From assembly GCA_965661545.1 (NCBI GenBank), contig CBFIEF010000001.1, forward strand, positions 27,250-91,249: a stretch of 64,000 nucleotides of DNA, given 5' to 3'. Source of the stretch: Alphaproteobacteria bacterium (lineage in GTDB: Bacteria; Pseudomonadota; Alphaproteobacteria; UBA7985). Each line of letters opens with the position of its first letter. Position 1 is the stretch's first letter. The notes under the pieces are model-generated. The model saw only the letters and a program-made list of their open reading frames with translations, did no database searches and was not told the origin of the DNA. Of the stretch, positions 22,644-63,967 are shown piece after piece. The position numbers and the translations under genes were made by a program.

Positions 22644-22955
22644 ATGCCATCCATCATTGTAATAGACCGCGACGGCAGCGAGCAGACCATCGAAGCGAAG
22701 GCTGGCCACAAGGTCATGGAAGTAATCCGTGACGCCGGTATGAACATCGAAGCGGCCTGTGGCGGCTGCTGCGCCTGTGCCACCTGCCACGTTTACGTGG
22801 ACGGTGAATGGTTCGGAAAGCTGGTCGGGGCAGACGAAGAAGAAACCGACATGCTTGATCTGGCGATGGACGTTAAGGACACCAGCCGGCTTTCTTGCCA
22901 GCTGGAGATGTCCGACGAGTTGGACGGCCTGCGGGTCGAATTGGCACCGGCCTAA
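22644..22955 (+). CDS. fdx: [2Fe-2S] ferredoxin, adrenodoxin/putidaredoxin type
   Basis: 103 aa, with the cluster loop CGGCCACATCH and a distal Cys in SCQLEM. Confidence 0.8.
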   Translation: MPSIIVIDRDGSEQTIEAKAGHKVMEVIRDAGMNIEAACGGCCACATCHVYVDGEWFGKLVGADEEETDMLDLAMDVKDTSRLSCQLEMSDELDGLRVELAPA

Positions 22956-25764: not shown

Positions 25765-27024
25765 ATGACGACGCACGACGTGCGTTCGCTTGCCGCACCT
25801 GTGTGTGCGCCAGCGGATTCACCTAGCGGCGCAGGTAATGCGCCCGTGGCTATGCCCACGACAAAACCCCAAGATCCGAATTTCTCTTCCGGTCCCTGCA
25901 CCAAGTTTCCCGGCTGGTCAGTCGACAAACTTGTCGATGCTGCCGTCGGACGCTCACACCGGGCCAAAGAACCCAAAGCTAAGCTGAAAGCCGTCATTGA
26001 CCGCTCAAAGGCCATGCTGGGGTTGCCAGATGATTGGATGCTGGGGATTGTCCCTGGTTCCGATACTGGTGCGGTTGAGATGGCCATGTGGTCCATGCTC
26101 GGCGCGCGCCCGGTGACAATTTTGGAATGGGAAAGCTTTTCCAAAGACTGGGCGACGGACGCCATCAAACAGCTGAAGCTGAGCGACGCACAGGTCATGA
26201 AGGCCGGCTACGGTGAATTGCCAGACCTCGCTGCTGTTGACCCTTCCCACGATGTCGTTTTCCCCTTCAACGGCACGACCTCCGGCGTTCGTGTGCCCAA
26301 CATGGATTGGGTCGCTGATGACCGTGAAGGGCTTGTGATTTGCGATGCAACCTCGTCTGCCTTTGCGATGGACATGGACTTCAGCAAATTGGACGTTGTG
26401 ACATGGTCTTGGCAAAAAGTGCTCGGCTCTGAAGCCGCGCACGGCATGCTGGCCCTTTCACCGCGCGCGGTTGCTCGATTGGAAAGCTTTGCCCCCGATC
26501 GTGCCTTGCCGAAGCTGTTCCGGATGACCAAAGCCGGCAAGATCAACGCCGGCATTTTTGAAGGCGCTACCATCAACACCCCGTCCATGTTGGCTGTCGA
26601 AGACGTGCTGGCGGCCTTGGACTGGGCAGACAGCATTGGCGGCGGACCGGCCTTGATCGCCCGCGCCAACGCGAATTTTGCAGCGCTGGACGCGTGGGTT
26701 CAGAAGACCGATTGGATCGATTGGCTCGCCGCTGATCCCGCAACGCGGTCGAGCACGTCCATGTGCTTGAAAATCACCGATCCGGCATTCCAGCAATTGC
26801 CAGCCGATGAGCAAGCCGCCTTCTGTAAGGCCTTGGTCCAGCTGATCGAAACCCAAGACGCTGGCTACGACTTCAACGGCTACCGCGACGCACCAGCTGG
26901 TTTGCGCATCTGGGGTGGTTCAACGGTCGAGTCCAGCAACATCGAAGCCCTCATCCCATGGTTGGAGTGGGCATTCGCAACACAATACACCGCAACTTTT
27001 GCATCGAAGGAAAACGCAGCATGA
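25765..27024 (+). CDS. serC: Phosphoserine aminotransferase. An alternative start at the ATG at 25852 is possible.
   Basis: Carries PNFSSGPC and class-V aminotransferase features. GAGG sits 8 nt upstream of 25765. Its stop overlaps the serA start as ATGA. Confidence 0.85.
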
Positions 27025-30758: not shown

Positions 30759-31760
30759 CTAGAGGCCGAGGTCAGCACGGAAGTAGGACAGCAGCGCGGT
30801 TAGGGTGAAAAAGGCGATGCTGGTCGAAACCAAAATCGCTGCTGACGCTTCGCTGGATCGCTTGCCGTAGGCTGTGGCCATGATAAAGGCGTTCGTTGCT
30901 GTGGGCGTCGCAGCCAGAATAACGCAGGTTGCGAAAACGGCGGGTTCCAGATTGAACAAAAACGCAGCCAGAAGCGCCGTGACGACAGGATGAACGACAA
31001 GCTTGAGCGTTCCTGTGGAGACCAGCAACGGTGCCGCTTCACGCATGTTGGAGATTGGGCGCAAGGCCATCCCAACACCGATGGAAAACAGCGCCACGCC
31101 AAAGGCGGTGGCAGACAGCATTTCGAGCGCTGGAAAGACAAAATCGACTGATGCGCTGAAAAATGGTGGCCAGTAGGGGCGCACGGCGCTCAGTGCGAAG
31201 CCGATGGCAAAGGGCCAAAGGAACGGATTGGTTGCGATGCTGCGCAGTGTTTTTCGGCCTGCGCGAAGGATTGACGCCACCGCGCTTCCACTGCCGTTTT
31301 CTGTGCGATCCTTATCAATTTCATGCAGCGCAAAGCCTGCGATCGAAATGATAATGATGTCGGCAGCCAGCAGTGAAAACGCGACAAAGATCCCCGGTCC
31401 GCCGAGCAGCTCGAGCGCCAGTGGGATCCCCATGTAGCCGGAATTGCCCCACGTGGATGTTGTTCCTAAGGCAGCAGTGTCGCCAAGGGAAAGCCGGAAC
31501 AGACCGCCGTGGATGATCCAGGAAAGCACGATGATCGTGGTGTTTGCGCCCATGAAGATCAGCAAGATCTGAACGTCAAAGCCGCTGAGAACGTCTTGTT
31601 CGAGCAGCTTGGAAAGGAACATGGCGGGCAGGGCAAAATACAGCAGGTAGTTGTTAAAAACCTTCGCCGAATCGAGTTTGAAAAACCCAAGTCTGCCAGC
31701 CAGATAACCCAGCATGATGACCATAAAGAAGGGGGCAACGATCCCAACCAACTCCAACAA
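30759..31760 (-). CDS. AEC-family (auxin efflux carrier) transporter
   Basis: A 10-TM profile with an N-terminal MLELVGIVAPFFMVIMLGYLAGR typical of the AEC family. Confidence 0.75.
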   Translation of the reverse strand: MLELVGIVAPFFMVIMLGYLAGRLGFFKLDSAKVFNNYLLYFALPAMFLSKLLEQDVLSGFDVQILLIFMGANTTIIVLSWIIHGGLFRLSLGDTAALGTTSTWGNSGYMGIPLALELLGGPGIFVAFSLLAADIIIISIAGFALHEIDKDRTENGSGSAVASILRAGRKTLRSIATNPFLWPFAIGFALSAVRPYWPPFFSASVDFVFPALEMLSATAFGVALFSIGVGMALRPISNMREAAPLLVSTGTLKLVVHPVVTALLAAFLFNLEPAVFATCVILAATPTATNAFIMATAYGKRSSEASAAILVSTSIAFFTLTALLSYFRADLGL

Positions 31761-31964
31761 TCGCCTAATCCTTAATTTGGTGAGACTAAAACGCTCTTTC
31801 GATCACCATGACGGCCCGCAGAGACTTCGGCAATTGTCGCTCGGTCGTTTTCAGACATGCGAAAGTCGTACCCGTGCCAACCGACCTTTGACCAATCGCT
31901 TAAACGGGAATTTATCTATAGATGTGCGCATTGCTTTTGACGCACCGGATTCAGGGAGACAACC

Positions 31965-32672
31965 ATGTCCGATGATGATCTTGATTTGAACGCCCTCAAC
32001 GATGACGAACTCGTCGAGCAGATGGGCGACGACCTCTACGATGGACTGAAAGAGGAAATCGAAGAGTCGACCCGAATCCTGTTGGACCGTGGTTGGACGC
32101 CATACGACGTACTGACCAAGTCATTGGTTGCCGGTATGACGGTTGTTGGCGAAGATTTCCGGGATGGCATCTTGTACGTTCCAGAGGTCTTGATGGCGGC
32201 AAACGCGATGAAGGCTGGCATGACGATCCTGAAGCCGCTTCTGGCCGAAACTGGCGCCCCGCGTATCGGCTCGATGGTGATTGGGACCGTAAAGGGCGAC
32301 ATCCATGACATCGGCAAGAACCTTGTTTCCATGATGATGGAAGGCGCTGGGTTTGAGGTTGTGGACATCGGCATTAATAACCCGGTTGAGAACTACCTTG
32401 ACGCTATCGAAGAGCATAAGCCTGACATCCTCGGCATGTCCGCGCTGCTAACCACGACCATGCCTTACATGAAGGTCGTGATCGAGACGCTGGTCGAGAA
32501 GGGCATGCGCGACGACTACATCGTCTTGGTCGGCGGTGCGCCGCTGAACGAAGCCTTTGCTGAGAGCATCGGTGCGGATGGCTACTGCCGTGACGCTGCT
32601 GTTGCCGTTGAAACTGCCAAGGATTTTGTGGCCCGTCGCCACAACATGATTGGTGCCCGAGCAAACGCCTAA
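31965..32672 (+). CDS. Cobalamin-binding corrinoid protein (B12-binding_2 cap plus a Rossmann B12 domain)
   Basis: The DxHxxG motif (GDIHDIGKN), S-x-L and GG signatures are present. Family resemblance is to MtaC/MtbC/MtgC corrinoid proteins. Confidence 0.75.
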   Translation: MSDDDLDLNALNDDELVEQMGDDLYDGLKEEIEESTRILLDRGWTPYDVLTKSLVAGMTVVGEDFRDGILYVPEVLMAANAMKAGMTILKPLLAETGAPRIGSMVIGTVKGDIHDIGKNLVSMMMEGAGFEVVDIGINNPVENYLDAIEEHKPDILGMSALLTTTMPYMKVVIETLVEKGMRDDYIVLVGGAPLNEAFAESIGADGYCRDAAVAVETAKDFVARRHNMIGARANA

Positions 32673-33393
32673 ACCCACGAATGCCCCCGCCCGACGGACA
32701 CGGTCCGGCGGGCGTGCGGGCCGTGCAGAGCGCGACCAAGGTCGCCGCGCAGTTCCCAGCATCGAAGCCCGTGATGGGGCCGCTGGGTTTCAGCATCCTG
32801 AAAAACCCCTCATTATCATTTGCGGCGCATTAGGGGCGGAAACCAAAGCGGTTTTGGCCGCTGCGGGCTTGTCTGACGCCTTTGAGATCACGGCACTGCC
32901 AGCCATCTGGCACAACTTCCCAGACCGGATTCCAGCGGGTGTTGAAACCAAAGCCGTTCAAGCTCGAAAAGACCGCGCTGACCGCCCCATCTTTGTTGGT
33001 TATGCCGATTGCGGCACAGGCGGGCTGTTGGACGAGGTGTGCGATCGGTTGAACCTGACCCGAATCGCAGGTCCACATTGCTACTCATTTTTTGCTGGAG
33101 AAGCGGAATTCAACGCACTGGCAGAGGAAGAGCTGGGCACGTTCTACCTTACGGATTTTCTTGCCCGCCATTTTCAGACATTGATCTGGGAAGGCATGGG
33201 GCTGGAGGGAAACCCTGACATGCTTGGAACCATGTTCGGCGGGTACAAACGTCTGATCTATCTTGCCCAAACAGACGATAGCGCTTTGACCGACCTCGCA
33301 CGCGGCGCTGCGGCGAAGCTGGAGCTGGACTTCGACCGAGTCTTTACAGGTTATGGCGAACTTGGGGACTTTGTCGCCGCGGCGGCTCCCTAA
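32650..33393 (+). CDS. DUF1638-domain protein, the usual partner of corrinoid proteins. The start codon is uncertain (TTG at 32650 or GTG at 32653). It overlaps the upstream gene.
   Basis: PLIIICGALGAE...GYADCGTGG... matches the DUF1638 pattern. No in-frame ATG is present near the N-terminus. Confidence 0.6.
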   Translation: MVPEQTPKPTNAPARRTRSGGRAGRAERDQGRRAVPSIEARDGAAGFQHPEKPLIIICGALGAETKAVLAAAGLSDAFEITALPAIWHNFPDRIPAGVETKAVQARKDRADRPIFVGYADCGTGGLLDEVCDRLNLTRIAGPHCYSFFAGEAEFNALAEEELGTFYLTDFLARHFQTLIWEGMGLEGNPDMLGTMFGGYKRLIYLAQTDDSALTDLARGAAAKLELDFDRVFTGYGELGDFVAAAAP

Positions 33394-33481: not shown

Positions 33482-34570
<1,089 letters not shown>

Positions 34571-55386: not shown

Positions 55387-55519
55387 TTTTACCAAGCTTT
55401 CGTAAATCTGTTATACGCCGGTTCTAAGGACGTAACTGCACAAGAGCAATAACCGGGCTTGTGCATAACCTGCAAGAACAATATACGAACATTCGCATAA
55501 GGCAAAAGGAAGCGAAGAG

Positions 55520-56230
55520 ATGGATATGACGGGGGTCAAAGGGCTGCTTTTTGACAAGGATGGAACTTTGCTGGACCTGCACGGTACGTGGGGCGTCGTT
55601 CTGAATGATTTGATCTGGTATTCTGCTGGTGAAGGCGAGCAGCGGGTCGCTGAAGACCTCGCACGGATTGGCGGCTATAACTTGGCCACACAGAAATTCA
55701 CGCCGGACAGCCAGTTGGCTCAGGGCGACTGGGGATCGATCTTTCAAGCGTGGCAGGAGCGGCTGGGGCCAGAGCAGGGCAAGCGCATGGTCACCTTCCT
55801 TGAAGACATGCGCACGGGTAAGCGCACGCGTCAGTCCGTCGCCTTGGGCAACATCCGGCCCACGATACAGGCACTGGCCGAAGCAGGTTTCGTAATGGGC
55901 ATCGCGACCAACGATTCGGAGGCCGCAGCTCGGCGCGATATGGAAGGTCTGGACGTGACAGAATTCTGCACCGTGATCTATGGCCACGACAGCCACGGCA
56001 GCAAGCCGGGGCCAGAAATGATGACTGCCTTTTGCGCTGAAACCGGCCTGAAGCCGGGGCAGGTAACGATGGTGGGTGACACCATGACGGACCTGAACTT
56101 CGCCCGAAACGCGGGCGCGCATTCTTGCATTGGGGTGATCGAAGACAGCTACGTCGATCCGCGCTTCCGCGCCGGTGTCGATGTTCGGATCGAGCACGTG
56201 CGCGAAATTCCGACTTTGCTGGGCGTTTGA
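55520..56230 (+). CDS. HAD-superfamily hydrolase (phosphoglycolate phosphatase-like)
   Basis: FDKDGTL motif I, the ATND motif and GDTMTD motif IV. Confidence 0.75.
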   Translation: MDMTGVKGLLFDKDGTLLDLHGTWGVVLNDLIWYSAGEGEQRVAEDLARIGGYNLATQKFTPDSQLAQGDWGSIFQAWQERLGPEQGKRMVTFLEDMRTGKRTRQSVALGNIRPTIQALAEAGFVMGIATNDSEAAARRDMEGLDVTEFCTVIYGHDSHGSKPGPEMMTAFCAETGLKPGQVTMVGDTMTDLNFARNAGAHSCIGVIEDSYVDPRFRAGVDVRIEHVREIPTLLGV

Positions 56231-56303
56231 GCGCCGGGGCTGACACAAGCAATCAGCAGCGCCGTTACGCTAGGCCTTTGTGTGTCATCAAGAACCCGCG
56301 GGA

Positions 56304-57671
56304 TTAGCCGTCGTCGGCGTCTAACAGGCTCACACGGCTGCTTTCGGCGTTGATCCATGCTTGCAGCGTGATGATCCAGCGCTCGTGCAGCTCGTCGCTG
56401 GACAGCGCGGCTTTCCACGCATCAACGGCTAGGGGCGTGTTGCCCCGCGCTTCTTCCAACAGGCCTTGGACCACGCGCAGTTCGGGGGTCATGCCGTGCA
56501 GGTGGGTCATGTACATTGTGATGTCTTCATCCAGCACGATGTTGATATGGCCCAGCCCGGTGAAGCTATCGAGGTAGAGAACCTGACGGATCTCGGCGAC
56601 GATCTCTTCGAGCGTAAACGCGGAACGCAGAAATTCGCCGTTCTTGCGCTGCTCGGAGGCGAGGTAAGAACCGGAGAGAATGGCATTGTAGAAGTCGGTG
56701 ACGTTTGAGGTCTCGCGGTTGAAACCACAGCTGCGCGCCATGCGGCTCCAGCCCATTTTGCGGGCGGAGCGGCGCGAGTCTGCGAACTTGCCACACAGCA
56801 ATAGGGTCCAGCTTGCGAAGCGCACGCCAGTTGTCTCGGCTTCGGCCTTGGCGGTGTAGCGTTCTTGCTCCATCAACCGGTCACGCACGCCTTGCAGCAG
56901 GCCCTGACAGTGGGCGGCTTGGGCGGTTGGGGTCTCGAGGAACAGCAATTTGGTAATGTTGGTTGGCTTGGTCTGGTCGTAATCCTGCTGCAACCGGCGG
57001 GCGAGGTCATCGCGGCCTGCGCGCATGGCGGCGGTGATCGGCCAGTCGAGGAAATCAGATCCAAAAGCGGTTTCAGCAAAGCTCATGAACTTCTGAATGT
57101 CGCCGACCAGAAATTCTGCCTTGGGGTAGTAATCCAGCTCCAGCCGCTGCGGCGCTAGACCGCGCGGGACCAGCGCTTCGCCGAACCAGAGATTGCCGTA
57201 ATACTGATCTTCGAGGCTGAAGTAGCGTGTAACGAGGCGAACCAACTCTTGGATGTCTGGACGGGCCAAGACAGCATCGGGAACAGCATCGAGCGAGAAT
57301 TTGCCCAGTTCCTCATTCATGTTCGAGAACGCCACGGACGCGCGGACGATGTCGGCGATGCCTGACATCACTTCTGGCTCTTCAGTGGCGGTTCCCATCA
57401 CCGACAGCAGATGGTTGGACAGGTCTTGCCGGTAGAATGTCCCACACAGGCGCAGCTCTTCTTGCAAATCTCGGGCAGCGCGAATGCTGTCCCAATCTTC
57501 GCTCCAATTGTCCGAAAGTTCGGCAGCGCTGGTGAAGGTTAGCATCATATCGAGGAAGATGCGGCGGTAGGGATCTTGCGGGTCGAATGCCTGTGCCTGG
57601 GCCAAAGTGGTCCAGCCGGTTAGGGCCAGAGCCATCCCAGTCAGCAGCGCTTTGATCGGTTTTTTCAGCAT
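56304..57671 (-). CDS. Secreted protein of unknown function (455 aa). It is the distal gene of the Bat/MoxR-like operon.
   Basis: The ATG at 57671 sits 4 nt after the stop of the upstream gene (TGA TTG ATG). Signal peptide MLKKPIKALLTGMALALTGWTTLAQA. No recognisable domain. Confidence 0.6.
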   Translation of the reverse strand: MLKKPIKALLTGMALALTGWTTLAQAQAFDPQDPYRRIFLDMMLTFTSAAELSDNWSEDWDSIRAARDLQEELRLCGTFYRQDLSNHLLSVMGTATEEPEVMSGIADIVRASVAFSNMNEELGKFSLDAVPDAVLARPDIQELVRLVTRYFSLEDQYYGNLWFGEALVPRGLAPQRLELDYYPKAEFLVGDIQKFMSFAETAFGSDFLDWPITAAMRAGRDDLARRLQQDYDQTKPTNITKLLFLETPTAQAAHCQGLLQGVRDRLMEQERYTAKAEAETTGVRFASWTLLLCGKFADSRRSARKMGWSRMARSCGFNRETSNVTDFYNAILSGSYLASEQRKNGEFLRSAFTLEEIVAEIRQVLYLDSFTGLGHINIVLDEDITMYMTHLHGMTPELRVVQGLLEEARGNTPLAVDAWKAALSSDELHERWIITLQAWINAESSRVSLLDADDG

Positions 57672-57674
57672 CAA

Positions 57675-60600
57675 TCAGACCTCCGCTTCAGACAGATATT
57701 CGCGGATCAAGTAGTCCGCGATAATGGCGATGAGCAGCAGCAGGACAAGGATCCATGTCAGATCCCAAACCCGCTCTTTGGTGCCGCTTTGATCCAGTTG
57801 GACCAACGAGGACGGCACCTGCAGGTTGCTCGGGTCTAGCACGACCCCGCCGCTGGCTTTCGCGATGGCGCGCAAGGCGGATAGATTGGCACCGGAATCC
57901 AGCGCCAACGGCTCTGTAGCGAGGTGCAAGAAAGCAGGATAGACCACGCCGGATTTCGTGAAACTCCGCCCGCGACCCTGGCGGTCTGTGCCGTCACCGC
58001 TGATCACCAGCTCGAAAGCTTCCGGCAGATCCCGAATGCTGCCCAAATTGCCGGTCCAACGCGCCTCCGAGCCCGTCAGCTCAAACTGAGCCAGCAAATC
58101 ACCACGCGTGGAAGGCTCAATGTCGGTGTTGCCAGTTGCTGCTTCTGCTTCTGGTTTTGGTTCTGTGTGGCCGTAAAGCTCCACGGAAAAGCCGGTTGGG
58201 GCAAAGGGGTCGATGGACTGGTGATTCAGTGTCAGCAGAACTTCGTTCCGTCCATCCCGTGTCAGCGACAGTTCAATCGCATCGCGGGGGCTGGTTCGCG
58301 TGGCCCATGCAAAGGCGCGGGCAAGGGCGACTTGGAAGATCGCACTGTTGGTCAGCGAGCCGTCTGCGCCACCATCGCGCAGGGATGTCCCAAGCGCAGA
58401 AACCCGGCCCCCGACCGCTGCGCGCTCAATGAACCCTTCGGCGGTGCTGGACGGTTCCCGCTGGAGCACCCAGTCGGTCCATATGGCCAAATCAAGCGCA
58501 CGGCCCTGTTCAGGCTGATAGTCTTGCTGGCCCAGAATAAAGCGAGCTTCGTCGCGAGCAGAAAGAACCGAGTAGCCGTTGATCGCGCCCAAGCCCATTT
58601 CCTGTGCGGGTAAGTCGTTCAAGAAGCGGTGGCGCGCGTTGAATTGCGGGTCGTCAATCCGCTCGTCCTTGTAGCTCGTCATCCGCCGCGCCAACTGTCC
58701 GATGGGAATTTGAAACCGGTCGAGATAAGCGATTCCGCCGCCGGCTTCAGCGACGCTGTACAGGTTGTTAAACCCTTCGGAAGCGATGCCCGCGCGCTGG
58801 CGCAAGGTGGCGTCTCGGCTGTTCAATACTTCGTAAATATCAGGCAGGGACGTGTCACCATACGCCATTGCGATACCGTTGATGATGAAGTCATCTTCGC
58901 TGTTCAAACGCGCAGCCAAAGCTGGCGCTGTGTCGCGCTGGAAGATGCCGTCTTCGTCAACTTTCCACGACAGATAAGCGCCTGTATCCGGATCGCCACC
59001 GTCGGCAACGATCAGAACCCGGCGCTCGTCTGGCAGCTCAAAACCGGCTTCTTCGGCCATCACCAGTGAGCGACGAGTTTCGAAGAGGGCGTCGTAAATA
59101 TCGATTCCTTCGGGCTGTAGCCCCAGCAGGCGACGACGCTCGAATTCGTCGGCCAACTGGCTCAGGGAGTCACGGATCTGTTTTTCGAGATCTTCGACGC
59201 CTTGAAAGGTATCCAGCGGCACCAGCTCGTGCACTTCGTCAGAGAAGCCAAAAATACGCACCAGTGAGCCTTCGGACAGCGGCGCGAAGCTCTCGACGAT
59301 ATAACGAACGGCCCGGTCCAACGTGTCTTCTTCGTAAAACAAGGACGCTGAGACGTCGAGGATGCCGACGGCAAGCAGCTTTGGGTCACCGGATGAGCCC
59401 TTGGGCTCTACATTCACCGGTAGCACCCGCGCCACTGGCGTCGCAGCGTAGCCTTTGACGCCGTATGTCTCGTCACCGCCAGCAACAAACAAACCCCCGC
59501 CGCGCTGCACGAAATCTTCGATTTCGCCAAGAATCGCCTGCTGGGTCATGCCGTCACCAATTTCGCCGGGGGCAAAGTCGGTCATCAGGATCAGATCGTA
59601 GTCGAACAGGTCCAGCGGATCGGTGGAATCAACGCCTGTCCGCCGAGGCAGATCGCTGGGCACCACACGGTCGATGTTCGAGTTGAGCTCTTCGATGATC
59701 GTCTCGATCAGAGAAATCGGCGCAGCACCGCCGTCGAGCCACAGCACTTGAGGCGTGGACATGGTTGGGACCATGCGCGACTGGACCGTATCGGGCAGGC
59801 GCGGCTGGGCGAAGCGGCTGTCGGGGACCGGCTCGGGGTCGTTGTCGAGCTTGACCGTCATCTGCACAAACGAGCCTTCGCCTTCCTGATCGAGGATCAG
59901 CGGCGTACACGATACGGTTTCTACCAGCTCATCAATAATGATCGCAGCCGTTCCTGCCGGATCACCGTCCAAGCAGGTAAAGCGGAACAAGTCTTGCACT
60001 TTGTCGCCCTGGAGCGCGCCAAGGTAGGCAACGCGCTGCTCGGCTTGCTGGCTGATGGCAAGGTCGATGGGCGTGGCAACCAAAGGCTCTTCCAGATCCC
60101 CCTGACTGAGCAGCGATAACCCTTGGTCATCACCAATGATAAAGCGGGGATCGTCCGGGTTGGCGAGGCGGTGAGAGGGCCGACCCTGCTGCGGCACCAC
60201 CAGCACGGGGACGCTGCCCCCGGCGAGAAGCTGCAACACTTGAGTGATCTGGGCGTCGTCGGGTGCCCCTTGGCGCGTGGTGAGGCCGTCGGTCAGCAGG
60301 ACGATTGCTTGTGCCGGCGCACCTGCGCCGGTGGCGAGCGTTTCTGCGACAACAGCCGACAAGTCGGTTGAAGCGCCGCCAATGTCATTCAATGCGCTGG
60401 ACGCGCTGCTGAAAGAACTGACTGTGCGGCTGCCTTGGGCGAAGACGCGGCGGTGAACGTCAGCTGGAACGCCCAAGCCCCGAACGATATCTGCGGTCAG
60501 GCGATCGGCGTCGGACAAGTAGTCACCGACTTGCGGTGCGTCCGCGTGGACGAGGCTTTCGGACAGATCGAGCAGGACATCAACGCGGGCCTTGCTTGTC

Positions 60601-60809
60601 GCTGGAACAGTCTGCCGGTATTCGGTCACGCCGAGCCACAGCAGCCCAATCAGGCCCACGCTCAGCCCGCGCAACACCAGACTGGTGACGAGAACCGACA
60701 GGCGCTGGTTCCGCTCGATCCCTGATAGTCGGTCCAGCAGCCGCCGGATGAGCGGGGCGAGCCAGAACAGCAGGCCAGCGAGGACAAGGGCGATCATCAG
60801 CAAACTCAT
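57675..60809 (-). CDS. Large membrane-anchored vWA-like protein (1044 aa) with a class-I glutamine-amidotransferase-like segment
   Basis: Two N-terminal TM helices, a DxSxS-like site (LDLSESL) and a later LILMTDFAPGE...GGGLFVAGG segment. The start ATG overlaps the upstream stop as ATGA. Confidence 0.65.
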   Translation of the reverse strand: MSLLMIALVLAGLLFWLAPLIRRLLDRLSGIERNQRLSVLVTSLVLRGLSVGLIGLLWLGVTEYRQTVPATSKARVDVLLDLSESLVHADAPQVGDYLSDADRLTADIVRGLGVPADVHRRVFAQGSRTVSSFSSASSALNDIGGASTDLSAVVAETLATGAGAPAQAIVLLTDGLTTRQGAPDDAQITQVLQLLAGGSVPVLVVPQQGRPSHRLANPDDPRFIIGDDQGLSLLSQGDLEEPLVATPIDLAISQQAEQRVAYLGALQGDKVQDLFRFTCLDGDPAGTAAIIIDELVETVSCTPLILDQEGEGSFVQMTVKLDNDPEPVPDSRFAQPRLPDTVQSRMVPTMSTPQVLWLDGGAAPISLIETIIEELNSNIDRVVPSDLPRRTGVDSTDPLDLFDYDLILMTDFAPGEIGDGMTQQAILGEIEDFVQRGGGLFVAGGDETYGVKGYAATPVARVLPVNVEPKGSSGDPKLLAVGILDVSASLFYEEDTLDRAVRYIVESFAPLSEGSLVRIFGFSDEVHELVPLDTFQGVEDLEKQIRDSLSQLADEFERRRLLGLQPEGIDIYDALFETRRSLVMAEEAGFELPDERRVLIVADGGDPDTGAYLSWKVDEDGIFQRDTAPALAARLNSEDDFIINGIAMAYGDTSLPDIYEVLNSRDATLRQRAGIASEGFNNLYSVAEAGGGIAYLDRFQIPIGQLARRMTSYKDERIDDPQFNARHRFLNDLPAQEMGLGAINGYSVLSARDEARFILGQQDYQPEQGRALDLAIWTDWVLQREPSSTAEGFIERAAVGGRVSALGTSLRDGGADGSLTNSAIFQVALARAFAWATRTSPRDAIELSLTRDGRNEVLLTLNHQSIDPFAPTGFSVELYGHTEPKPEAEAATGNTDIEPSTRGDLLAQFELTGSEARWTGNLGSIRDLPEAFELVISGDGTDRQGRGRSFTKSGVVYPAFLHLATEPLALDSGANLSALRAIAKASGGVVLDPSNLQVPSSLVQLDQSGTKERVWDLTWILVLLLLIAIIADYLIREYLSEAEV

Positions 60810-62860
60810 GCGGAAACCCTCCGGCTTGCGCCCTTCCGGAACCGACCGGCCAGCACGATTAAGAACAGCGCTTCTAGGACGGCAAGGGCGAGCAAGCCCA
60901 TCACCAAGGGACGGGTCAATCGGCGTAGGCCATCGCCCCGTGACAGCGCGGAGAAGTCGGGTAAGGCCGTGACAGATGCGCGGGTCAGCGCGGATTCTTC
61001 AGCGTTAAACAGCGCCAGTGACAGCGGCACCGTCTGTGACAGCCCTTCGCCGCTGAGGAAATACAGACCGGCCTGGTCCAACCGCCACCGAGAGACGCCC
61101 AAATCATCCGTGATAACCGGTGGAATTTCAGCATCATCGGTCCGAACCACAGCGTTCCGCACGCCATCCAGCGTCAGCGGGTCGCCAGCAGCGAGGTACT
61201 GGGGGATGCGCTGGCGTCGGTCGTCCATCCACTCGAGGGTGTTCATCATCATAAAGGTCAGGGTCAGGCAGTCGTCAGGGCCATAGATTTGGGCGTCGCG
61301 GCGGTCTTCGACTGTGTTGTCCGCTTCGGCATCCGAGGGGATGAAATTGGTGCAATAGGCATGGGGGTCGAAGCCGAGAAATAGCATCTTAGCGGCCGGA
61401 AGAAGCGCGCCATCAAACTCGGTATCTTGGCGTTCGGCGGCGAAGGCTGTGACGATCTCGACCCGATCTTCAGCGATAACTGTCAGCGCATCTTGCGGAT
61501 CTACGTCGCGCAGCAGCGGCACAACCCGTGACTTTTCGTCAGCAAAAGGCAGGGGGCGCAGCGATGGGCCAACCGTCACACGGCCAATCATGGGCTTGAG
61601 GCCGGCCATCACCGGATGACGGTTTTCCGACGCTTGCCAAGCGAACTGGCGCGCGCCGCTGCCGTCTTCCGATCGGCCAGCACCGGGGCGGGTTTCGATG
61701 ACAATCGCATTGGCGTTCAGTTCTTCGAACAGGGGGCCTTCGGGACAGCGGTCAAAAATCACGGCGTCATAGCCGCGATAGTCCGCATCGTCCGTGATGC
61801 CCGCGCTTTCTGACAGGCGGATGTTGGGGTGAGGCAAGAAGCGGTCAAACAGATAGCCGTTGCCTTCGCAGCGGACGATATGCAGATCAAACTGCTGCAC
61901 CACTTCCGGTACAACCCACAAGCTATCATCCAGCGCCAATGGGTCGCCGGAACCCGAGGTCAGGATGAGTTCTTTGGGGCCAGGGCCGAGTTGTACGGTC
62001 TGCTCCAAAACCCGATCCAGCGGAAAGGTTTCACGCGCGCCCGCAGGCAGGTCAAAGGGCCGACGCAGCGTTACAACAGCTGGCTTGCCCCGGACACGTG
62101 CCGTCAGCGAAACATCGCGCAGCGGCTCAGTCCCAAAGTTGCGCAGCGACACTTCCTTGGGCGCATCAAACAGGTTCAGTCCACCGCTCACGCCCTCAAA
62201 CCCAACGTTGGAGGGCAAGTCATCGCCCACATCGATCCAGTTCAATCGTCGAGGCGCGTTGATCTCTTCGCTCAACGGGCGATCGGTCACCAGCGTCAGC
62301 GCACCAACGCCGCGTGACGCGGAAAGCGCGGCGAGGGCGGAGAGGCGCTGGTCCATCGGCGCAGGCATCGACGTGGCGCTCAGCGTGTTCAGCTGGGCCC
62401 GGGCTTCGAGGCGATCGGCCACAAACGGCACGTCGTCGCCCAAGTTGGTCAGGCTCACCAGTGCAACGCTTGCACCGGCAGCCATCGCCTTATCAATCTC
62501 TGCATCCGCAGCCGTGACGGCCCGGTCAAACCGGGTTTTCCCGTTTCCAGCTTCGGCGTTCATGGACGCTGACGTATCAACCACGATCAAACGCTTAGGC
62601 GCAGGCAAAAGCGCCGAAAGGCCGAGCGCGATTAATGCCAGCAAAGCAAACATCAGCGCATAGAGCCACCGGTGCCACTTGTGCGTCATCGACAGGTTCT
62701 GGAACGTGGTGCGTCGCGGCAAATCTCGAAACAGCAACAGCGAGGAAACGTCCAGCCTTTGCCGCCGCGCCGGCAGGGACAAGAACGCCAGCGCGGGCGC
62801 TAGGATCAAAGGCAAAGCCCACAGAAAAGATAGGCCAAAGGTAAAGCCGAAAACCGTCAT
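60806..62860 (-). CDS. BatA-like protein with an N-terminal double-transmembrane domain (TIGR02226-type) and a vWA domain (684 aa)
   Basis: The N-terminus FGFTFGLSFLWALPLILAPALAFL, then MIDAS-like VVDTSASM. It starts 3 nt after the DUF58 stop. Confidence 0.7.
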   Translation of the reverse strand: MTVFGFTFGLSFLWALPLILAPALAFLSLPARRQRLDVSSLLLFRDLPRRTTFQNLSMTHKWHRWLYALMFALLALIALGLSALLPAPKRLIVVDTSASMNAEAGNGKTRFDRAVTAADAEIDKAMAAGASVALVSLTNLGDDVPFVADRLEARAQLNTLSATSMPAPMDQRLSALAALSASRGVGALTLVTDRPLSEEINAPRRLNWIDVGDDLPSNVGFEGVSGGLNLFDAPKEVSLRNFGTEPLRDVSLTARVRGKPAVVTLRRPFDLPAGARETFPLDRVLEQTVQLGPGPKELILTSGSGDPLALDDSLWVVPEVVQQFDLHIVRCEGNGYLFDRFLPHPNIRLSESAGITDDADYRGYDAVIFDRCPEGPLFEELNANAIVIETRPGAGRSEDGSGARQFAWQASENRHPVMAGLKPMIGRVTVGPSLRPLPFADEKSRVVPLLRDVDPQDALTVIAEDRVEIVTAFAAERQDTEFDGALLPAAKMLFLGFDPHAYCTNFIPSDAEADNTVEDRRDAQIYGPDDCLTLTFMMMNTLEWMDDRRQRIPQYLAAGDPLTLDGVRNAVVRTDDAEIPPVITDDLGVSRWRLDQAGLYFLSGEGLSQTVPLSLALFNAEESALTRASVTALPDFSALSRGDGLRRLTRPLVMGLLALAVLEALFLIVLAGRFRKGASRRVSA

Positions 62861-62863
62861 GGA

Positions 62864-63967
62864 TCAGACCGCCTCGATTTCTGCAGGTTCACCGGCATAG
62901 CCCTGACTGGCCATCGCCGCGAGAATACGGTGCACGTCGCTGCGGTTGTGATCCCCGGCAGCACCGGCGTCAAAGGACGCGTGGCCGAGGTTGAGACTGC
63001 GTGCGGCCCCAGACAGCGCAGCGCCGTGCGCGGATCGAACGCGGGTGTAGGCCTTGGACGCTGCACGGGTAAAGGCGAGGCGTTGCAGCACGCCGCTTTC
63101 CATATCTACGATCTGACGCGCTTGGCTCAGATCCTGATCCTGCGCGCCGGAAACCTGACACAGCACCCCGCGAATGTTGGGGTGGCTGAGGAACTTCAAT
63201 CCGCGTGCCACGTTCTGTGCAGACAGCATCAGACGCCGCCGCGCCTGCGCGCGCACACTGTTCAGCAGCCCGCGCTCTGTCGACGTTAGCGGCAGTTGCG
63301 GTAGGTCTTGCGGGACGGCGTCATTCATCCGGTCGTCGTCGACGTCGAACAGCAAGTCGGTCAGAACCACCACTAGCGCCCCCTGATTGCGCCAGTCCAG
63401 CGAAGCGGCACCAAGCGCGTCAAAGTTAGTTGCGCCGCTGGGTTCCAGCCCAGCAAGCCGTTCACGCATCGAGCCAAGCAGTTGGCGTGCGTGCAGCACG
63501 TTGATAACCCGCTCGCTCGCTACGCTATCGCCAAAGGGCATAACGCGCACGGCGTAACCGCTGTTCAAGCCAATCAGTGCCAATTGCAGGGTCAGCTCGA
63601 TCGTCGAGCGGAATTTGTCCTGCCAGCCGCCTGTTGCCATCGAGGCGGAGGTATCCAACGCCAAAACCAGGCGGGGTTGGTGTTCGTCTTGGACCAAACG
63701 GGTATAGAGCCGCTTTGACCGACCATAGAGCGACCAGTCCACGCGCCGCACGTCATCACCGGGCGTGTAGGTCCGGTGCTGTTTGAACTCCAAGCTGTCG
63801 CCGTCCAGCGAGTTCAGGTGCGGCCCCATCGCCGCGCCGCGTGGGGGGATCCATTGCGGCGGCAAGGTCAAGTCGCCCACTGCGCGCAGAAACGCTGGGT
63901 CCAAGTCGTCAAGACGCCTGTGCGCACCCATCGGCTCGGGCTGGAGATCAGGAGAAGATTGGGCCAA
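62864..63967 (-). CDS. DUF58-domain protein (partner of MoxR-type AAA+ ATPases). The start is a TTG at 63967 or the ATG at 63931.
   Basis: The DUF58 core EFKQHRTYTPGDDVRRVDWSLYGRSKRLYTRLVQDEHQPRLVLALDTSASM. An upstream minus-strand gene ends at the TAG at 63972-74, only 4 nt before the TTG. Confidence 0.72.
   Translation of the reverse strand: MAQSSPDLQPEPMGAHRRLDDLDPAFLRAVGDLTLPPQWIPPRGAAMGPHLNSLDGDSLEFKQHRTYTPGDDVRRVDWSLYGRSKRLYTRLVQDEHQPRLVLALDTSASMATGGWQDKFRSTIELTLQLALIGLNSGYAVRVMPFGDSVASERVINVLHARQLLGSMRERLAGLEPSGATNFDALGAASLDWRNQGALVVVLTDLLFDVDDDRMNDAVPQDLPQLPLTSTERGLLNSVRAQARRRLMLSAQNVARGLKFLSHPNIRGVLCQVSGAQDQDLSQARQIVDMESGVLQRLAFTRAASKAYTRVRSAHGAALSGAARSLNLGHASFDAGAAGDHNRSDVHRILAAMASQGYAGEPAEIEAV

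Follow-up and report, generated by a model that had tools for sequence, protein, structure and literature searches.

The DNA stretch analysed here, referred to as the window, comprises 64,000 nucleotides (64 kb) of contig CBFIEF010000001.1 from an alphaproteobacterium (assembly GCA_965661545.1), and carries a gene for a B12-binding corrinoid protein together with an overlapping gene for a DUF1638 protein (Table 1). In a Pfam scan, which covered every large open reading frame (ORF) of the window, the corrinoid protein matched the B12-binding_2 cap (PF02607) with 61 bits and the B12-binding domain (PF02310) with 96 bits, while the second protein matched PF07796 with 86.8 bits (gathering cut-off of 27). 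This hidden Markov model check confirmed both domain assignments of an initial annotation, and the DxHxxG motif that it had noted was also found. The role of this motif is known from MetH and corrinoid proteins: by analogy with MetH, the His residue of DIHDIG would serve as the lower axial ligand of cobalamin. The first gene encodes a stand-alone cap plus B12-binding protein with DxHxxG, as does alphaproteobacterial mtgC (~230 aa). The pair very likely constitutes an mtgC-DUF1638 operon, encoding the B12-carrying core and a conserved accessory protein of a split methionine synthase/glycine-betaine methyltransferase (MtgBCDE). By its sequence, it appears to be a further member of the published MtgC/DUF1638 core (PMC5764234, PMC12478193), the dispersed arrangement of which has already been documented for Ruegeria; this placement supersedes the initial view of an unexplained orphan of unknown role.

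In Phaeobacter inhibens, separate homocysteine-binding, pterin-binding, and B12-cap plus B12-binding proteins make up a split methionine synthase, and methionine auxotrophy results from mutation of the B12-binding, DUF1638, or RamA-like protein or of either of the two methyltransferase pieces (Price et al. 2018, PMC5764234). The DUF1638 gene of this bacterium, which is required for methionine prototrophy, lies just downstream of the B12 protein gene, the RamA-like (DUF4445) gene is unlinked, and, across Alphaproteobacteria, DUF1638 is found together with the RamA-like protein (PMC5764234). The counterparts of the window pair are PGA1_c13350 (B12 cap plus B12-binding) and PGA1_c13340 (DUF1638). 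In Ruegeria pomeroyi, knockouts of mtgC (SPO2160) and mtgD could neither synthesise methionine nor grow on glycine betaine, and Mausz et al. (2025, PMC12478193) modelled MtgE as the homocysteine module, with MttB-family MtgB proteins serving as betaine modules. Both DUF1638 (SPO2162) and RamA were more abundant on N-osmolytes in R. pomeroyi, and the genes are dispersed in R. pomeroyi and P. inhibens and clustered in many other bacteria (PMC12478193). The suggestion of the initial annotation that the module may act with unlinked genes was a correct guess. The window resembles R. pomeroyi DSS-3 in having the same two-domain corrinoid protein with DUF1638 alongside, in its unlinked partner modules, and in belonging to a marine alphaproteobacterium. 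On the other hand, DUF1638 of the window overlaps mtgC and bears a basic N-terminal extension; furthermore, the lineage is an uncultured marine alphaproteobacterium with a small genome and contigs of up to 2.4 Mb.

Table 1. Features at and around the corrinoid/DUF1638 gene pair (positions in the window).
Feature	Position	Strand	Description
mtgC-type corrinoid gene	31965..32672	+	235 aa; B12-binding cap and B12-binding Rossmann domain; PF02607, PF02310
DxHxxG (DIHDIG) motif of the corrinoid protein	32298..32315	+	residues 112-117, read from the translation
DUF1638 gene	32653..33393	+	246 aa from GTG 32653; PF07796
N-terminal extension of DUF1638	32653..32760	+	36 aa here; basic, Arg/Gly-rich, clade-specific
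Divergent intergenic region, AEC transporter gene to mtgC	31761..31964		204 bp
Invariant 25-nt block GTCGTTTTCAGACATGCGAAAGTCG	31844..31868	+	identical in 16/16 window-clade loci
Palindrome ATCTATAGAT	31914..31923		AT-rich patch, chance-level, non-conserved
GTGCG-N12-CGCAC inverted repeat	31924..31945	+	predicted hairpin at the same position in 4 leader variants
Shine-Dalgarno sequence GGGAGA of mtgC	31954..31959	+	5 nt before ATG; GGAGAC kept in all variants
AEC/Mem_trans transporter gene	30759-31760	-	upstream neighbour (Pfam)
mreB	33530-34570	+	downstream neighbour (Pfam)

The corrinoid protein of the window was 77-84% identical over its full length to the products of corrinoid genes in 80 alphaproteobacterial species-representative genomes, including Ruegeria atlantica, R. 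arenilitoris, Leisingera, Roseibium, Hoeflea, Rhizobium, Sinorhizobium saheli, and a SAR116 single-cell genome. As proxies for SPO2160 and PGA1_c13350, the proteins of R. atlantica, R. arenilitoris, and Ruegeria sp. gave identities of 80-84%, and those of Leisingera 82-84%. These values fall in the same range as those of the MtgC homologues in Dataset S2 of Mausz et al., in which the SAR116 and Labrenzia proteins are 79-82% and 80-81% identical to SPO2160, respectively, and 79-93% identity was accepted as MtgC (PMC12478193). The ratio of nonsynonymous to synonymous substitution rates (dN/dS) was 0.007-0.02 for the corrinoid gene and 0.02 for the DUF1638 gene (the latter against the strain-level variant L096). 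This strong purifying selection on both genes indicates that the pair is functional and not a remnant, and implies that partner genes exist somewhere in the genome.

Neighbouring ORFs in the 80 related loci were clustered, and recurrent clusters were annotated. DUF1638 was located downstream of the corrinoid gene on the same strand in 73 of the 80, with a median gap of 280 nt. The other recurrent neighbours were a homocysteine S-methyltransferase (PF02574; 37 loci, ~2.4 kb upstream), a small PF13769 protein (36 loci), a ferredoxin-RACo (Fer2+RACo, RamA-like) activase (34 loci), a pterin-binding methyltransferase (PF00809; 32 loci), and MTHFR (17 loci). In Phaeobacter and most Rhodobacterales loci (not Ruegeria), the order was homocysteine methyltransferase, B12 radical S-adenosylmethionine (SAM)-like protein, corrinoid protein, and DUF1638, as reported for PGA1_c13370 to c13340 of P. 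inhibens, unlike in the window, which contains neither of the first two genes. In Rhizobiales, Roseibium, SAR116, and others, the order was corrinoid protein, DUF1638, PF13769, (MTHFR), pterin-binding methyltransferase, and RACo. Among the 62 well-flanked loci (8 kb or more on each side), 11 contained a solitary pair with no partner genes nearby, and six of these were from Ruegeria; a solitary pair is therefore a normal state, namely, that of the characterised Ruegeria genome. MttC/MtbC/MtmC, MtaC, and MtgC of D. hafniense adjoin their own MttB-family methyltransferase and a second methyltransferase of the MtbA/MtgA type, and an MttB-family neighbour had initially been regarded as the norm. 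However, no MttB-family gene recurred within 10 kb across the 80 related loci, and, therefore, the expectation of an adjacent MttB does not apply to the alphaproteobacterial family.

Some observations on individual loci may be added. The PF13769 ('Virulence_fact') protein of ~100 aa, encoded between DUF1638 and MTHFR or mtgD in the 36 loci (e.g. 11357-11671 in L092), would seem to be a conserved, uncharacterised part of the clustered system. As exceptions to the otherwise tight pairing, a few loci (L077 (10001-15145), L009, L075, and L086) had a corrinoid gene with no detectable DUF1638 gene within 10 kb; the order in L077 was corrinoid protein, PF13769, pterin-binding methyltransferase, and RACo. 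In L089-L091 (e.g. 6882-20708 in L089; corrinoid protein 85% identical), the operon was located among genes for FTHFS, a DMSP_lyase-domain protein, DAO, and SoxD, and this context would fit a role in osmolyte and one-carbon catabolism.

The neighbourhoods also bear on an alternative in which the pair is an orphan corrinoid shuttle for an unidentified methylated substrate, serving only unlinked MttB-family methyltransferases and having no part in methionine synthesis. The best NCBIfam similarities of the corrinoid protein were to the MtgC, MtbC, and pyl_corrinoid types and not to MetH, mtgC-carrying genomes contain up to seven MttB-family genes (PMC12478193), and the pair could be purely catabolic if the genome has a classical MetH. 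In the relatives, however, the pair is physically linked to the homocysteine methyltransferase, pterin-binding subunit, and MTHFR, with no recurrent linkage to MttB, and genetics in two model species demonstrated that it is needed for methionine synthesis (PMC5764234, PMC12478193). We consider such a purely catabolic shuttle to be improbable.

Classical MetH (E. coli, PDB 1bmt/3bul) shares with the window protein the cap and B12-binding domains with DxHxxG, as well as the transfer of the methyl group from methyl-tetrahydrofolate via cobalamin to homocysteine. The similarity of the corrinoid protein to MetH amounted to about 100-116 bits and was confined to the B12 module. While MetH consists of one polypeptide that includes a SAM-dependent reactivation domain (PF02965), the window system would be composed of separate proteins, and its reactivation is attributed to RamA/RACo and DUF1638. 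The closest solved relatives by sequence were 1y80, MttC (7xcn_M), 4jgi, and the B12 modules of MetH. Corrinoid proteins of anaerobic methylotrophy have the fold and shuttle logic in common with the window protein, and the best NCBIfam similarities were found there; the window protein differs in scoring below all of the curated cut-offs, in having no adjacent MttB, and in its occurrence in aerobic organisms.

The mechanism proposed for the MtgBCDE system of the window lineage follows from orthology. Cob(I)alamin on MtgC would take a methyl group from methyl-tetrahydrofolate via the separate pterin-binding subunit MtgD, and MtgC would then hand it to homocysteine via the separate homocysteine S-methyltransferase subunit MtgE, yielding methionine. 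In the reverse direction of MtgC/MtgD, MttB-family MtgB proteins may load methyl groups of glycine betaine (and possibly of other quaternary amines) onto cobalamin for transfer to tetrahydrofolate. Oxidised cob(II)alamin would be re-reduced by an unlinked ATP-dependent activase of the RamA/RACo type, with DUF1638 presumably acting in this maintenance step, and the partner genes would be located elsewhere in the genome, as in R. pomeroyi.

Several points weigh against this assignment. No curated model places the corrinoid protein, as its scores against the NCBIfam models of anaerobe-type MtgC, MtbC, and pyl_corrinoid did not reach the cut-offs: 208 vs 370 and 183 vs 310 bits for MtgC (NF047996 and NF047995, respectively), 192 vs 350 bits for MtbC (NF041607), and 186 vs 215 bits for TIGR02370. 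Sub-cut-off scores are expected, since the alphaproteobacterial MtgC proteins form a phylogenetically distinct clade, as found by Mausz et al. (PMC12478193). Orthology to SPO2160 and PGA1_c13350 rests on congeneric proxies and synteny. None of mtgD, mtgE, mtgB, and ramA was found in the window: Pfam detected no MttB, Pterin_bind, S-methyl_trans, MTHFR, or RamA/RACo gene, and tblastn with the homocysteine methyltransferase, pterin-binding methyltransferase, MTHFR, PF13769, and RACo proteins of related loci as queries revealed no copy. The initial statement that no partner methyltransferase lies near the pair accordingly holds for the entire 64 kb. SAR116-type MtgD was not found in the same metagenome-assembled genomes (MAGs) by accession proximity (see below). 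The reactivation role of DUF1638 is drawn from genetics and co-occurrence, and Price et al. had no specific proposal for this protein (PMC5764234).

An identical or near-identical pair was found in the same context (AEC transporter gene, pair, mreB) on many marine metagenome contigs and MAGs, one contig being 2.38 Mb in length. Metagenome contig L092 (10001-15639) shares the upstream synteny of ilvC, leuA, serA, and the AEC gene, and continues with the corrinoid gene, DUF1638, PF13769, MTHFR, the pterin-binding methyltransferase, and RACo. Its DUF1638 protein was only 45% identical to that of the window, its MtgD was 92% identical to SAR116-type proteins, and its corrinoid gene switched from window-like to SAR116-like at about residue 170; L092 thus appears from its sequence to be a natural recombinant or an assembly chimera. 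As a mosaic whose breakpoint falls within the corrinoid gene, L092 is not good evidence for the ancestral state, and its use as proof that the full operon once sat at the window locus was rejected as unsafe. When MtgD of L092 was used as a query, the best 120 matches were saturated by SAR116-type proteins (Puniceispirillum and Ponderosibacter). NCBI accession proximity between window-type corrinoid proteins and SAR116-type MtgD proteins gave no pair within the span of one genome, and, therefore, the two originate from different organisms.

Both the overlap of DUF1638 with mtgC and its non-ATG start, as described in the initial annotation, were real (ORF 32650/32653-33393), while GTG 32653 is a likelier start than the TTG at 32650. 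The overlap with the 3' end of mtgC is 20 nt, which makes translational coupling plausible. Homology to the DUF1638 proteins of other taxa starts only near 32800 and, because the preceding stretch is Arg/Gly-rich, a non-coding artefact of the ORF was first suspected for the N-terminal extension. This possibility was ruled out: between the window and L096, 9/9 differences in the extension region were synonymous and at the third codon position, and an extension of variable length (36-56 aa), beginning with MPEQTP, was present in all relatives with 73-96% identity (P0241-P0264), being absent from other DUF1638 proteins. These synonymous-only changes and the clade-wide extension indicate that DUF1638 starts at GTG 32653. 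A GC-rich inverted repeat was also observed inside the extension (about 32688-32714).

The GTG start called for DUF1638 in L094 aligns with ATC at 32761 in the window and with ATT in L096. This loss of a canonical start, together with the full operon in L092 behind the same ilvC-leuA-serA-AEC synteny, would be in line with the window pair being a decaying remnant, left after the deletion or relocation of the PF13769-MTHFR-mtgD-ramA part of an operon. This alternative is highly improbable: the dN/dS values given above are low for both genes, purifying selection also acts on the upstream GTG start and on the extension, and L092 is of the SAR116 type from about residue 170 of its corrinoid protein.

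Among 96 aligned DUF1638 homologues, the invariant residues were C21, H51, D83-C84-G85, G87-G88, H106-C107-Y108, T131-D132, and R136 (numbering from nt 32761 of the window), and the window protein carries all of C21, H51, D83-C84-G85, H106-C107-Y108, T131-D132, and R136. The AlphaFold (AF2) model (predicted local distance difference test score of 90.7) was a two-lobed alpha/beta protein, a predicted fold with no solved relative. Rossmann-like folds usually bind ligands at the C-terminal ends of their strands, and in the model the invariant residues are placed at or just after such strand ends. We speculate that DUF1638 has a cofactor-handling or redox role, acting through this putative Cys/His/Asp site with the RamA-like activase on the cofactor of MtgC.

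The 204-bp divergent intergenic region, the palindrome ATCTATAGAT, and the repeat GTGCG-N12-CGCAC were all present as initially described; however, their interpretation as an operator was not sustained. Perfect 10-bp palindromes numbered 68 in the window against 62.5 expected, and 88 inverted repeats of the 5-N12-5 type were counted. At the site of ATCTATAGAT, strains with an ~100% identical corrinoid protein have AGCTATAGAA, and the more distant clade members L094 and L092 have GTTAATATAA and ATCGATATAA, respectively. An operator at 31914-31945 was rejected on account of this chance-level frequency and the lack of conservation among near-identical strains; ATCTATAGAT, which the initial annotation had proposed for defining a regulon, occurs once in the window. 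This AT-rich patch could belong to a -10-like element. At the site of GTGCG-N12-CGCAC, a small hairpin was predicted in 4/4 leader variants, with differing inner stems and a G-U wobble in L096. As other small hairpins, including one with a G-U wobble, replace the repeat at the same place, these four sequences weakly favour a small RNA hairpin of the 5' leader as more likely than a DNA operator. No riboswitch was found by an Rfam scan of the leader, which gave noise only at E values of up to 10. No sigma-70 consensus promoter-like site was found around the pair, and the intrinsic terminator consensus gave a single site there (1.8 expected), located within DUF1638 on the minus strand.

Within the intergenic region, only the 25-nt block GTCGTTTTCAGACATGCGAAAGTCG was strongly constrained, its flanks having diverged; it was absent from other taxa. 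GACAUG...GUC of the block is complementary to GAC...CAUGUC of the ribosome-binding site and start codon of mtgC, and a helix between them, which would close a leader of ~120 nt, was present in the minimum free energy folds of 4/4 leader variants and in RNAalifold. Covariation was not observed because both sides of the helix are invariant. Upstream ORFs on either strand begin inside the block, and were rejected since their peptides are not conserved in the alignment. The block could equally serve the divergent AEC gene.

The shared intergenic region is relevant to a further alternative, a B12-sensing regulatory or transport module in which the corrinoid protein acts with the divergent AEC transporter under a palindromic operator. 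The divergent arrangement, the invariant block between the two genes, and a weak similarity to the CarH family (31.8 bits) are consistent with it. Nevertheless, the corrinoid protein has no DNA-binding domain by Pfam, the palindromes are neither above the chance level nor conserved, and no AEC gene adjoins the pair in the 80 loci from other taxa, so that the adjacency, from which the initial annotation had derived a possible link to the transporter, is limited to the window clade. Such a module is very unlikely. Whether the pair contains more than the known MtgC/DUF1638 core was also considered: DUF1638 might be a new cobalamin-handling or redox accessory enzyme, and the invariant block a new element by which this marine clade exerts translational control over B12-dependent methionine and one-carbon metabolism. 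The genetic requirement of DUF1638 for the split methionine synthase, its invariant site of three Cys, two His, and Asp residues, and the coupled Arg/Gly-rich tail point in this direction, as does the predicted helix between block and start codon, and this reading is tentative and rather doubtful.

Both neighbours named in the initial annotation, the AEC transporter gene and mreB, were recovered by Pfam, and mreB is followed by mreC, mreD, a PBP2 gene, and rodA. The rest of the window contains housekeeping genes: ilvBHC, leuA, serA, glyA, thyX, gyrA, gyrB, glnA, uvrA, and ssb. A 103-aa [2Fe-2S] ferredoxin is encoded at 22644-22955 (+), with PF00111 assigned to it in L001, and is 68% identical to the ferredoxin encoded directly upstream of mtgC in L089-L091; it may be the electron donor for corrinoid reactivation or merely a housekeeping ferredoxin. 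A 419-aa ORF at 25765-27024 (+), between a LysR regulator gene and serA, had no Pfam match and was kept in syntenic metagenome loci with a called product of 390-437 aa. Four large ORFs of 274, 456, 1044, and 684 aa at 55424-62860 (-) and 62864-63967 (-), located downstream of a DUF58 gene on the same strand, gave no Pfam match at E values of up to 1e-5.

In the annotation of aerobic alphaproteobacteria, corrinoid-protein/DUF1638 pairs should be assigned to the core of a split methionine synthase and not to an orphan methylotrophy module. The remaining value of this locus lies in the chemistry of DUF1638, in the basic N-terminal tail specific to this clade, and in the invariant block of the leader. 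The presence of the pair makes it likely that this abundant marine alphaproteobacterium, which is uncultured, uses the cobalamin-dependent MtgBCDE system. Use of this system would imply that methionine synthesis requires B12 and that glycine betaine may be catabolised, both of which bear on the cycling of vitamins and osmolytes in the ocean.

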